64,000 nucleotides of DNA. Origin: Candidatus Anderseniibacteriota bacterium (GTDB taxonomy: Bacteria > Patescibacteriota > Andersenbacteria > UBA10190). The number at the start of each line of letters is the position of its first letter. Position 1 is the stretch's first letter. This document shows, piece by piece, positions 12,681 to 14,175 of the stretch. The position numbers and the translations under genes were made by a program. The stretch lies in NCBI GenBank assembly GCA_040876835.1, contig JBBDOX010000011.1, positions 1,452 to 65,451 on the forward strand, written 5' to 3'. The notes beneath the pieces were generated by a model. That model was not told the origin of the DNA, ran no database searches, and worked only from the letters and a program-made list of their open reading frames with translations.

Positions 12681-13030
12681 TTGTGCTGAATATCATACAG
12701 TGGTGATACTGCAGACGTCACAGGTAGCAAAAGTGTCCACGCGGTGGGCTCTTAGCTTTACTCGTAGTTCTTTATCTGGGAGGAATCTGGTTGAGGTTTT
12801 TGGAAAACTAGGTAGGCAGCCGCTTACTTCCTGGATCGAATATGTTGTATATGAAATACCGCTGTGGTTATATTCGGCGGTATTTCATGTATATGGCTTG
12901 CAAAACAAGGCCTGGTCCTGCAAAATCACTTCGTACCTCTTATACATACGGAGGGTGTTCCTTACTTTGAAACAAGGCCCAGTAATGGGCCTTTATTCCC
13001 GGGTAGCTCAATGGCAGAGCAACTGGCTGT

Positions 13031-13578
13031 GACATGTTCGTATTTAGTCTGCTAAAATATAAAGTATGATTGAAAAGCGAACATATGCCGACCGTCGCGA
13101 GCAAAACATCAAGGCTGTAGCTAAGCGTCGAAGAAAGCTAAAAGCAATGGTGATTGAGTATAAAGGCGGTAAGTGTATGATTTGTGGCTATACTCGTAGT
13201 GCGGCAGCATTAGAGCTTCATCATGTTAATCCCAAGGAAAAATCATTTAGTCTCTCCAAAAGAGGGCTGACGAGATCTTGGGAAAAGACAAAAGCTGAAG
13301 CTGATAAGTGTGTGCTAATCTGCTCGAATTGTCACAAAGAAGTACATGCAGGTGTAACGCAGCTTCCGCAAGTAATTGCGGTCGAATAACTGGGTGAATT
13401 CGGGGAAGCCTTAACTGGTAATCCCGAGCCAAGCCGAAGAGGGTATATAAGTTCTTCGGAAGGTGTAGAGACTAGGAAGTGAGTCCCAACAATATTCTTC
13501 CAGATAGCGCCCAGTACCCTTATATGTTGTAAGGGTGATGATATAGTCCATGCCGGCACGAAAGTGTTGGGTTACATG
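13031..13578 (+). mobile_element. Group I intron (548 nt) in the tRNA-Asn anticodon loop, carrying an HNH homing endonuclease ORF
   Basis: The 5' exon ends in U and the intron ends in G (omega-G). An R-like element GAGACUA (13468-13474) and an S-like element GAUAUAGUCC (13540-13549) can pair as P7 (GACUA/UAGUC). ORF 13066-13389 sits in a peripheral loop. Confidence 0.7.
13066..13389 (+). CDS. HNH homing endonuclease (intron-encoded)
   Basis: 107 aa. CMICG…LELHHVNPKEK…CSNCHKEVH is an HNH/zinc-finger nuclease motif. Basic N-terminus. Confidence 0.75.
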   Translation: MIEKRTYADRREQNIKAVAKRRRKLKAMVIEYKGGKCMICGYTRSAAALELHHVNPKEKSFSLSKRGLTRSWEKTKAEADKCVLICSNCHKEVHAGVTQLPQVIAVE

Positions 13579-13674
13579 TAACCAGTAGGTTGTCGGTTCG
13601 AGTCCGACCCCGGGAGCAAGTTTGTACGTTCGGTTATTATGGTGTTTACGTATTGATTGCTATAAATTGATTGC

Positions 13675-14175
13675 ATGGCTAACAATATCGCTTTTATTGA
13701 TGGACAGAATTTGCATATGGGAACGACTATGTCAGATAGACCATGGCGCGTGGATTTATCAAGATTTAAAATATACTTGCAGCAGAAGTACAATGTGAAA
13801 GAAGCGTACTACTTTCTAGGATTTACTCAGGACAGCCACCAAGACCTATATGATTCCATTCAAAAAGCTGGGTTTATTTTACAGTTTCGAGAACACAGTT
13901 CAGCTATGTTAGGAAAGAAGAAAGGCAACGTCGATACCGACATCGTGTTTTCAATAATGAAGAAGCTGTATCAGCAAGAAGACTTTGAAAAGGTTGTCTT
14001 AGTATCTGGTGATGGAGATTATAGAATGATGGTTGATTTTTTGATTGATGAGAACCGTTTGAGGAAGATATTATTTCCAGAACAAAGGCGAGCTTCGTCT
14101 CTGTATAAAAAGATTGATCTGAAATATAGGGCTGACTTGAGCGCTCAGGACGTGCGAAGAAAAATTGGACGATAA
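13675..14175 (+). CDS. NYN-domain (LabA-like, PIN-related) protein
   Basis: 166 aa. FIDGQNL…NVDTDIV…VLVSGDGDY matches the NYN/COG1432 acidic-residue pattern. Confidence 0.68.
   Translation: MANNIAFIDGQNLHMGTTMSDRPWRVDLSRFKIYLQQKYNVKEAYYFLGFTQDSHQDLYDSIQKAGFILQFREHSSAMLGKKKGNVDTDIVFSIMKKLYQQEDFEKVVLVSGDGDYRMMVDFLIDENRLRKILFPEQRRASSLYKKIDLKYRADLSAQDVRRKIGR

Follow-up and report, generated by a model that had tools for sequence, protein, structure and literature searches.

Group I introns that interrupt tRNA-Asn(GUU) between anticodon positions 35 and 36 have been described in Patescibacteria (Nakagawa et al., mSystems 2026, PMC13011429) and correspond to class 'Asn.4Ug' of Williams 2020 (bioRxiv 10.1101/2020.01.27.920355). 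Accurate, GTP-dependent splicing in vitro has been shown for an ORF-less intron of this kind from a different Patescibacteria genome, a PF01844 HNH gene was reported in four introns at this site, and HNH-bearing 35/36 introns were found only in Patescibacteria in that study (PMC13011429). The kind of intron analysed here, at exactly this site, is therefore already published, in 2020 and in 2025-26, and the first-pass annotation of the present locus overrated its novelty, since the site, the HNH-bearing copies and the in vitro self-splicing of an ORF-less one were all on record.

The IC3 introns of cyanobacterial/plastid tRNA-Leu(UAA) and of Azoarcus/Agrobacterium tRNA-Ile/tRNA-Arg mostly lack an ORF and measure about 200-250 nt. 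The intron of the Synechocystis tRNA-fMet gene encodes the endonuclease I-Ssp6803I (Bonocora and Shub 2001, as cited in PMC3984707). Free-standing homing endonucleases are known from phage tRNA clusters (T4 SegB, T5 F-TflI/II/IV; PMC2330249), and the term collaborative homing is used where such an endonuclease works together with an intron that has no ORF (reviewed in PMC3984707).

The locus described here lies in a 64-kb stretch of DNA (the window) from Candidatus Andersenbacteria (Patescibacteria, bacteria with tiny genomes). It is best explained, with a probability of roughly 90%, as a tRNA-Asn(GUU) gene into which a self-splicing group I intron has been inserted between U35 and U36, with a gene for an HNH homing endonuclease lying in the P1 loop of the intron. 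With the introns of Nakagawa et al. and Williams it shares the host gene, the U35|U36 site, the phylum, U-1, omegaG and the match to RF00028, and its relatives are likewise mis-called as tRNA-Thr split at 33/34 by the usual tools. The Andersenbacteria copy does not appear to be among the 95 complete genomes of PMC13011429. Moreover, the intron spliced in vitro there is ORF-less, whereas that of the window carries an ORF, and that study makes no mention of the ORF being in L1 or extending over the guide and P2. What is added for the HNH-bearing member is a matter of detail, i.e. an endonuclease gene placed in the P1 loop and a 'TQLP' motif that is the translated guide. The IC3 tRNA introns have a similar P7 (GUAGAGACUA / AUAGUC), but they are inserted at 34/35 (Leu) or 36/37 (Arg, Ile) and have no P7.1-like hairpin, whereas the window intron sits at 35/36 and has one. 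I-Ssp6803I is a PD-(D/E)XK enzyme from a cyanobacterial tRNA-fMet gene split at 33/34, in contrast to the HNH ORF in tRNA-Asn 35/36. SegB belongs to the GIY-YIG family, whereas the gene in the window is of the HNH type and resides inside an intron within its putative target.

The split tRNA-Asn gene

All features described below are on the forward (+) strand. Exon 1 (12997-13030) consists of the acceptor 5′ strand, the D-arm, the anticodon stem 5′ strand and C32, U33, G34 and U35, with U13030 as the base directly before the intron (U-1). Exon 2 (13579-13617) contains U36, A37, A38, the anticodon stem 3′ strand, the variable loop, the T-arm, the acceptor 3′ strand and the discriminator base G73; CCA is not encoded at its 3′ end. 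Exon 1 ends with CUGU and exon 2 begins with UAA, which gives CUGUUAA as the loop of the joined sequence. It had been claimed that 12997-13030 and 13579-13616 together restore a complete tRNA-Asn(GUU), and every coordinate of that claim was correct; with the discriminator G13617 added, the joined sequence is a 73-nt cloverleaf that ARAGORN called tRNA-Asn(gtt). When the unspliced DNA was searched with introns allowed, ARAGORN placed tRNA-Asn(GUU) at 12997-13617 and gave the length of the intron as 548 nt (gctgt-intron-taacc). Because ARAGORN counts bases, and the D-loop is one base shorter than in the standard numbering, its 'position 34-35' corresponds to the canonical site 35/36. The proposed insertion between anticodon positions 35 and 36 thus agrees with the ARAGORN site and with the register set by omegaG and P9.0 (see below), and the U and the G that had been claimed for the ends of exon 1 and of the intron, respectively, are present as U13030 and G13578. 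Neither plain ARAGORN nor the Rfam tRNA model detected the split gene; an intron-aware mode was required. In many Patescibacteria, tRNA-Asn is overlooked or wrongly labelled by standard tRNA finders, which distorts estimates of genome completeness, a point already made by Nakagawa et al.

For comparison, the best 80 of at least 506 related genome loci were examined. The intron boundaries of these relatives were re-derived by the U-1/omegaG/anticodon-stem rule and the spliced sequences re-called; Thr, His and Asp labels that ARAGORN had assigned to related loci turned out to be register errors. The same 35/36 split of tRNA-Asn was present in 73 of these best 80 loci, and in approximately 66 of them the ORF was intronic. 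The nearest introns (loci L006 and L001) are both from Andersenbacteria metagenome-assembled genomes (MAGs). The composition profile of the 64-kb window showed nothing unusual.

Ribozyme anatomy of the intron

The intron (13031-13578; 548 nt) matched the covariance model RF00028 (Intron_gpI) at 13335-13570 over the full model (1-253) with 73.2 bits (E 1e-16), above the gathering score of 50, which bears out its earlier assignment to group I. Sixty-four homologous introns were aligned for covariation. The core anchor AATTCGGG was often matched within the ORF, and the guide GCAGC was used as the anchor instead; loci L051 and L055 (anchor matched inside the ORF) and L007 and L008 (no anchor in the allowed distance range) were left out. 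In this alignment, 86.5% of the cells of the proposed helices were paired (68.1% when shuffled), and 726 double-change cells were observed compared with 247 in the shuffles, none of 500 of which reached the observed value. When the partners were slid by one to three columns, at most 43% were paired. The minimum free energy (MFE) fold of 13359-13578 recovered P2, P3, P4, P5, P6a, P7.1, P8 and P9 (z = -3.25).

P1 is formed by the end of exon 1 (GGCUGU, 13025-13030) and the internal guide GCAGCU (13359-13364), with 6 bp including the wobble U13030.G13359, so that the P1 pairing that had been put forward as a check on the splice sites is present. Between 4 and 6 contiguous pairs can be formed in all 70 related loci considered, and GCAGC is invariant in 64/64 aligned introns; the four core pairs of P1 are invariant and hence cannot show covariation. 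The position of the guide follows from homology with ORF-less introns. Since the ORF occupies the loop of P1 (L1, 13031-13358), the guide is not found near the 5′ end of the intron but 328 nt downstream of the 5′ splice site, and P1 must form across the ORF. The 328 nt of L1 comprise a 35-nt leader and most of the HNH ORF; in ORF-less relatives, L1 measures only 5-12 nt. The first hairpin in the Rfam alignment (13339-13362) is not P1; homology with the ORF-less relatives places P1 across the ORF.

The hairpin P2 (13366-13381; CCGCAA-GUAA-UUGCGG) was paired in 96% of cells, with compensatory changes at 6/6 pairs. P3 (13390-13396 with CGCCCAG at 13508-13514) was 91% paired, with changes on both sides at 5/7 pairs. 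P4 (13400-13404 with 13423-13427), which together with P5 (13408-13410 with 13417-13419) spans 13400-13427, was 98% paired and had compensatory changes at 5/5 pairs. Within 13428-13464, P6 (13428-13430 with 13462-13464) and P6a (13434-13440 with 13453-13459) were paired in 93% and 86% of cells, respectively, the latter with compensatory changes at 7/7 pairs. P8 (13516-13536; 13516-13522 with 13530-13536) was 75% paired, with 6/7 compensatory. The strands that had been proposed for P7, GAGACUA (13468-13474) and GAUAUAGUCC (13540-13549), were confirmed and are invariant in 64 homologues; GAGACUA, with A13469 bulged, pairs with UAGUCC (13544-13549) to form the guanosine-binding helix, which is 100% pairable in the alignment and in which the strands align to the Rfam consensus AGACUA/UAGUC.

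Between P7 and the 3′ strand of P3, an extra, P7.1-like hairpin (13475-13501) is present in the MFE fold; it was 59% paired, with compensatory changes at 5/5 pairs, and occurs in most homologues while being absent from some. Its position fits the subgroup IA to which tRNA-Asn 35/36 introns were assigned (PMC13011429), a subgroup with extra P7.1/P7.2 elements, of which the window intron has a single hairpin only. A reading of the core as Azoarcus-like (IC3) was dropped in view of this hairpin and of the published IA assignment.

At the 3′ end, P9.0 (A13550-U13577 and U13551-A13576) encloses P9 (13553-13559 with 13564-13570, GAAA loop), together covering 13550-13577, and omegaG, the final base of the intron (G13578), follows directly. 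P9.0 is 100% paired in the 64 sequences, with pair types AU 51/GC 12/UA 1 at one position and CG 34/UA 24/AU 4/UG 2 at the other, and the G at 13578 is invariant. The covariation of P9.0 hence fixes omegaG, and the 3′ splice site along with it, in the Asn register, which provides a sequence-only rule for choosing the Asn over the Thr splice register. The pairing from P1 to P10 that had been suggested as a check did not extend to P10: a conserved P10 was not found among the related loci, and the window intron and most of the loci lack contiguous pairs in the canonical register. In tRNA introns, the exons are paired by the anticodon stem, and a P10 helix can reportedly be done without (Zaug et al. 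1993, listed in PMC3984707).

The HNH gene in the P1 loop and what it may do

The ORF at 13066-13389 encodes a predicted HNH homing endonuclease of 107 aa. That an HNH ORF lies inside the intron had been noticed before, and it matched Pfam HNH (PF01844) with 26.8 bits (cut-off 21.4) and PHROG HNH families with E values down to 3e-30. NCBI lists a protein of identical sequence, from a MAG, under the name 'HNH endonuclease [Candidatus Andersenbacteria bacterium]'. Just upstream of the start codon, a consensus scan gave a tentative match to a sigma-70-like promoter (13029-13058; GTGACA, 18-nt spacer, TAAAAT, TG before the -10 element). More than 1200 homologues share 60-73% identity, with the residues of CxxC, HH and CxxCH being invariant; among 31 homologues, C37, C40, H52, H53, C82, C86 and H90 were invariant and N88 and C89 nearly so. 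Pairwise dN was 0.25-0.30 and 66-70% of the residues were kept; dS was saturated in 5/6 pairs, for which dN/dS is hence not computable. The AlphaFold2 model (pLDDT 87) shows strand-strand-helix elements, a possible beta-beta-alpha metal finger, and a single long N-terminal helix. The top Foldseek matches in the PDB were HNH nucleases (Cap5, Cas9 HNH, T4 EndoVII, Gme HNH), all weak (E >= 0.15); the best PDB sequence match, also weak, was the HNH domain of a group II maturase (6ME0; E 1.8e-4), and no NCBIfam family exceeded its cut-off.

The protein has the HNH catalytic motif in common with other intron-borne mobility proteins, such as the phage enzymes I-HmuI and I-TevIII and the group II maturase of PDB 6ME0, but it is much smaller, and the similarity is confined to the HNH core. 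With 107 aa, there is little room for a separate DNA-binding domain, the place of which appears, in the model, to be taken by the N-terminal helix. The 3′ end of the ORF (codons 98-107 and the stop codon) runs through the guide sequence, P2 and J2/3, and the C-terminal 'TQLP' motif is the internal guide sequence in translation. Because the last 10 codons coincide with the guide and P2, translation and the folding of P1/P2 should exclude each other on any one RNA molecule.

Once the precursor is transcribed, P1 would form between the guide GCAGCU and the terminal GGCUGU of exon 1, with the wobble U13030.G13359 at the splice site, and a free guanosine bound to P7 would attack after U13030. OmegaG13578, placed by P9.0, would then enter the same site, whereupon the exons would be ligated to give the loop CUGUUAA. 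During these steps it is probably the tRNA anticodon stem, and not a P10 helix, that keeps the exons together, just as the anticodon stem probably aligns the exons of the IC3 tRNA introns. The HNH protein, in turn, most likely acts on tRNA-Asn genes that lack the intron, cleaving or nicking them close to the site of insertion, and use of the intron-bearing copy as the repair template would spread intron and ORF together (homing).

A dead tRNA-Asn pseudogene, disrupted by an intron that does not splice, with a second, intact tRNA-Asn gene elsewhere supplying the function, would be compatible with the limited view of 64 kb of the genome, and decay is indeed seen in one related locus (L018), in which the intron lacks its 3′ part and exon 2 its beginning. 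In the window, however, none of the core helices is damaged, and the invariant P7 strands, U-1, omegaG and P9.0 have all been kept; the two exons together form a complete cloverleaf, and intron-bearing and intron-less copies of one anticodon rarely coexist in a genome (Nakagawa et al., PMC13011429), which makes a pseudogene very improbable. That assembly or binning fused unrelated fragments is a concern with any MAG, which the source is, but the exon halves fit perfectly as one tRNA, and an independently assembled Logan contig (L081) contains the same stretch (a PPIase gene, the split tRNA with its HNH gene, and an NYN gene). In addition, more than 70 genomes, obtained in many projects, share this architecture, so that the chance of an artefact is negligible. 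Much the same holds for splicing two bases earlier, at 33/34, which would create the anticodon UGU (Thr): some 30 related loci are labelled tRNA-Thr 33/34 by ARAGORN, tFind calls many relatives likewise, and in those 30 or so loci both registers put a U ahead of the 5′ site and a G ahead of the 3′ site. The window intron, however, would then end in A13576 and not in G, the covariation of P9.0 sets omegaG in the Asn register in 64/64 introns, U1-A72 and G73 are found in the tRNA body, the E. coli genes closest to the spliced sequence carry a tRNA-Asn annotation (80% identity), and the sequenced in vitro spliced product of a relative was joined at 35/36 (PMC13011429). A Thr register is, thus, scarcely credible.

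For the ORF, the alternative to a homing endonuclease in current use is a protein that has lost its activity, assists splicing (as a maturase) or serves the cell as a nuclease in some other way, which would suit the very small size of the protein, its weak structural matches to solved HNH nucleases and the lack of an NCBIfam family over cut-off. Yet, the reading frame is intact, the HNH and zinc ligands are conserved across the more than 1200 homologues, and residues have been retained to the extent given above while synonymous sites are saturated. The lineage also adjoins tRNA-Asn in unrelated phages and bacteria, as a site-specific mobile endonuclease would. A maturase is not needed, because an ORF-less relative splices in vitro (PMC13011429). 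A non-homing ORF is therefore considered unlikely, and a homing endonuclease inside a self-splicing intron is the preferred reading of the locus.

HNH relatives beside tRNA-Asn genes

Wider searches revealed that one HNH lineage adjoins tRNA-Asn genes in phages and bacteria, irrespective of whether an intron is present or not. Relatives of the HNH gene adjoin tRNA-Asn in 26 of 31 viral (IMG/VR) loci, where they are free-standing in phage tRNA arrays with an intron-less tRNA-Asn, similar to the free-standing endonucleases known from phages. Cultured phages with a free-standing HNH relative beside an intron-less tRNA-Asn are Bacillus phage Bastille (gp259), Cronobacter phage CR3 (gp262) and Vibrio phage F86. 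Eight bacterial loci have a free-standing HNH gene next to tRNA-Asn; in seven of them (L012, L032, L046, L063, L066, L073 and L078) the tRNA gene contains an ORF-less 35/36 intron, an arrangement like that of collaborative homing, and in one (L075, a MAG) it is intron-less. The occurrence beside tRNA-Asn even where there is no intron supports the tRNA-Asn gene as the target of the endonuclease. In L046, a candidate relic of a 5′ splice site (CCTGT|AGAG, 33 nt before the ATG of the free-standing HNH gene) was discarded as indistinguishable from chance.

The pattern suggests that a lineage of endonucleases targeting tRNA-Asn may have entered the intron, which is possibly new. That a single HNH lineage tied to tRNA-Asn exists in three states, i.e. 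free-standing with an intron-less tRNA, free-standing with an ORF-less intron, and inside the P1 loop, is a tentative proposal, to which slightly less than even odds are given. As part of it, switches between the free-standing and the intronic state appear to have been repeated, and may have gone in either direction. In a neighbour-joining tree of the 100-aa HNH proteins, which carries no support values and from which no direction is inferred, phage and bacterial groups are interleaved. If the proposal is true, these loci form a natural series in which a free-standing endonuclease, already adapted to the site, and an ORF-less intron residing there are combined into a mobile group I intron. HNH-bearing 35/36 introns are also present in MAGs labelled Blastocatellia/Pyrinomonadaceae and others, and the phages would, on the same proviso, be possible carriers between phyla.

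A tRNA-Asn gene interrupted between anticodon bases two and three

Inspection of the window's sequence placed two tRNA gene halves, 548 nt apart, within 12997-13617 on the + strand, a region in which neither plain ARAGORN nor the Rfam tRNA model found a match. Joining 12997-13030 to 13579 onward gave a 73-nt sequence that ARAGORN called as tRNA-Asn(gtt) and folded into a regular cloverleaf; when introns were allowed, the same gene was recovered from unspliced DNA, the intron lying between gctgt and taacc. Both calls bear out the tRNA-Asn(GUU) assembled in the first-pass annotation. The spliced tRNA has a U1-A72 pair and discriminator G73, and its best matches in E. coli genomes were annotated tRNA-Asn genes (80% identity over 60 nt). 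The position reported by ARAGORN ("34-35") is a base count, not canonical numbering; because the D-loop has 7 bases, the ARAGORN boundaries correspond to canonical site 35/36, as originally proposed. The last base of exon 1 is U, G stands at both ends of the intron (the terminal U and G had been pointed out before), and exon 2 opens with U. The placement is therefore unique: in any shifted register the loop would be a different one.

On related loci, ARAGORN returned mixed Asn, Thr, and His calls. Boundaries were re-derived under three requirements (...CUGU, G preceding UAA, and an anticodon stem that pairs), and the spliced product was then re-called. The Thr reading of the relatives reflects a two-base register ambiguity (CU|GU...G|UGUAA) and was rejected, as covariation in P9.0 favours Asn: in a 64-sequence alignment, P9.0 was paired in 64/64 sequences, with AU, GC, or UA at one position and CG, UA, AU, or UG at the other. 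Splicing the window intron in the Thr register would require A as its final base.

Introns of this kind have been published. Nakagawa et al (mSystems 2026, PMC13011429; preprint 2025) described 15 tRNA-Asn 35/36 introns from 95 complete Patescibacteria genomes, assigned them to subgroup IA, remarked on Thr mis-calls, and found PF01844 HNH genes in four of them; in that complete-genome survey, HNH-bearing 35/36 introns occurred in Patescibacteria only. Accurate GTP-dependent splicing in vitro was demonstrated for one Patescibacteria tRNA-Asn intron, with an ωG-to-C control (PMC13011429). According to the same authors, "Asn.4Ug" is one of the classes of Williams 2020 (bioRxiv 10.1101/2020.01.27.920355). 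The window intron is a further tRNA-Asn 35/36 member, from an Andersenbacteria MAG. The initial observation is confirmed and its interpretation supported, but the main claim will no longer surprise a specialist, site and HNH cargo being in print already. The present analysis contributes a close anatomical description of a copy with an ORF, a rule by which P9.0 settles the splice register, and the distribution of the endonuclease lineage over three states.

The surroundings of the gene deserve brief mention. A GC-rich hairpin (GGCCCA-GUAA-UGGGCC, then UUUAUU; 12974-12996), terminator-like in form and missing from the scan tool's listing, reaches the first base of the tRNA, leaving no space for a promoter in between. 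Beginning 58 nt downstream of the split tRNA, an NYN-domain protein is encoded (13675-14175, + strand; predicted RNase fold, PF01936, 58 bits), and the NYN gene also neighbours the split tRNA in L081, the independently assembled Logan contig of the same DNA.

The ribozyme fold

RF00028 matched 13335-13570 with 73.2 bits (gathering score 50; E 1e-16), which upholds the group I identity assigned earlier. The fold was mapped by homology with 63 related introns (giving, with the window, the 64-sequence alignment) and by energy folding. Both approaches, the latter as the MFE fold of 13359-13578 alone (z = -3.25), yielded P2 (13366-71 with 13376-81, GUAA loop), P3 (13390-96 with 13508-14), P4 (13400-04 with 13423-27), P5 (13408-10 with 13417-19), P6a (13434-40 with 13453-59), an extra, P7.1-like hairpin (13475-79 with 13497-501), P8 (13516-22 with 13530-36), and P9 (13553-59 with 13564-70, GAAA loop). 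Homology placed the guide GCAGCU (13359-64), P6 (13428-30 with 13462-64), P7 (G13468 and 13470-74 with 13544-49), P9.0 (13550-51 with 13576-77), and ωG (13578). The P7 strands are those already proposed to pair, and P7 is invariant in the alignment. Lying between P7 and P3', the extra hairpin is consistent with subgroup IA; because both site and core differ, the intron is not of the IC3 tRNA-Leu type.

Across the 64 sequences, 86.5% of cells held standard pairs, compared with 68.1% in shuffles, and double-sided changes occurred in 726 cells versus 247, a value reached by 0/500 shuffles. Sliding the 3' partners by 1-3 columns lowered pairing to 32-43%. Because the mapped structure was derived from the window's own sequence, this control is somewhat biased in its favour; no such dependence applies to the compensatory changes seen in P2, P4, P6a, P8, and P9.0. 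In three relatives (L010, L039, and L061), introns are 710-716 nt long, with ∼340 nt from the ORF stop to the 3' splice site and an extra insertion within the ribozyme part.

P1 was identified from seven relatives with short, ORF-less introns, in which the exon end CUGU is followed after 5-12 nt by GCAGC, forming an ordinary hairpin. In the window, the guide lies 328 nt past the 5' splice site; P1 (GGCUGU with GCAGCU, 6 bp, one of them U13030.G13359) thus encloses a 35-nt leader and the ORF in its loop. By the same comparison, the first stem aligned by Rfam (13339-62) was rejected as P1. Between 4 and 6 contiguous P1 pairs were present in 70/70 loci tested; the four core pairs carry no covariation signal, because C32, U33, G34, and U35 never vary in tRNA-Asn. 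Of the pairings the first-pass annotation had singled out for checking, P1 with the CUGU exon end was thus found, but a canonical P10 was absent from the window and from most relatives among the 70 loci. In tRNA introns, exons can be held together by the anticodon stem (Zaug et al, 1993, as listed in PMC3984707), and by analogy this stem may take the place of P10 here.

An HNH reading frame that overlaps the guide

The ORF within the intron (13066-13389, 107 aa) matched Pfam HNH with 26.8 bits (cut-off 21.4) and several PHROG HNH families (best E 3e-30), in agreement with its earlier designation. Public data hold more than 1,200 proteins at 60-73% identity, and an identical protein is recorded as "HNH endonuclease [Candidatus Andersenbacteria bacterium]". 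Among 31 homologues, the CxxC, HH, and CxxCH residues show no or almost no variation; dN to the nearest relatives is 0.25-0.30 with synonymous sites saturated, which indicates that the protein is under constraint. In a confident AlphaFold2 model (pLDDT 87), a long helix at the N terminus leads into strand-strand-helix elements. HNH nucleases took the top ranks in a PDB fold search, all as weak matches (E ≥ 0.15), and among solved structures a group II intron maturase gave the best sequence match, through its HNH domain (E 1.8e-4). A consensus match to a sigma-70-like promoter with a TG-extended -10 lies at 13029-58, in the intron leader directly before the HNH ATG, and the HNH gene could be expressed from it separately from the tRNA precursor.

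At 13357-13389 the sequence serves twice: HNH codons 98-107 (TQLPQVIAVE), together with the stop, are encoded by the guide, P2, and J2/3. The conserved "TQLP" corresponds to ACG CAG CUU CCN, the guide itself, and its Q-L-P results from translation of the guide GCAGCUUCC; the C-termini of free-standing HNH relatives lack the guide-encoded TQLP. Given this overlap, it is plausible that translation and P1/P2 folding interfere with each other.

HNH relatives inside and beside tRNA-Asn

When one genome per species was scanned, at least 506 genomes encoded an HNH relative, and the best 80 loci were fetched. These were mostly from Patescibacteria MAGs, a few being labelled Blastocatellia/Pyrinomonadaceae, Omnitrophica, Simkania, Methylomirabilota, or Proteobacteria. 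A tRNA-Asn(GUU) with a 35/36 intron was present in 73 of the best 80; the others comprised five cut contigs, the decayed-looking L018, and L075, with an intron-less tRNA-Asn. Intronic loci share a constant layout, with 20-50 nt between the 5' splice site and the start codon and, after the ORF, a core of mostly ∼150-250 nt. L018 (740-1345, Berkelbacteria MAG) appears to be a decayed copy; it retains exon 1, the HNH ORF, and the guide, along with the ribozyme from P2 to the P7 5' strand, lacks P9, the intron 3' end, and the beginning of exon 2, and yielded no tRNA call.

At seven bacterial loci, the HNH gene lies outside the intron and adjoins a tRNA-Asn(GUU) with an ORF-less 35/36 group I intron (192-257 nt; RF00028 55.8-65.5 bits where tested), either directly upstream (L012 2501-3141, L046 2501-3158, L032, L063, L073, and L078) or directly downstream (L066 2004-2751). 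A free-standing endonuclease combined with an ORF-less intron has a precedent in collaborative homing (PMC3984707). In core RNA and protein, the intronic loci most like these seven fall into several different subtypes, which suggests several independent switches between the free-standing and intronic states; a neighbour-joining tree, without support values, did not resolve the direction of change. At L075 (1500-1938, bacterial MAG), the HNH relative ends 14 nt upstream of the intron-less tRNA-Asn(GTT), the presumed target site thus being uninterrupted beside the endonuclease gene.

HNH relatives with 44-63% identity also occur in phage tRNA arrays (L083-L112 from IMG/VR; L113-L115). At 26/31 IMG/VR viral loci, a free-standing HNH gene in a tRNA array has an intron-less tRNA-Asn(GTT) as its immediate neighbour; only L082 and L094 among the 31 contain the intron. 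The HNH gene likewise adjoins an intron-less tRNA-Asn in 3/3 cultured phages checked by ARAGORN and record annotation, Bacillus phage Bastille (L113), Vibrio phage F86 (L114), and Cronobacter phage CR3 (L115), with a tRNA-Asn annotated at each side in Bastille. Such adjacency supports tRNA-Asn as the probable target of this HNH lineage, a tie for which a limited literature search found no published description. Free-standing endonucleases in phage tRNA clusters have precedents in T4 SegB and T5 F-TflI/II/IV (PMC2330249).

As to the loci labelled outside Patescibacteria, five HNH-bearing tRNA-Asn 35/36 introns (L045, L050, L060, L071, and L077) come from Blastocatellia/Pyrinomonadaceae-labelled MAGs of four separate projects and have their own tRNA body and intron subtype in common. 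The same intron subtype was observed in L019, labelled Heliobacteriaceae, and one locus each was labelled Omnitrophica, Simkania, Methylomirabilota, and Burkholderiales.
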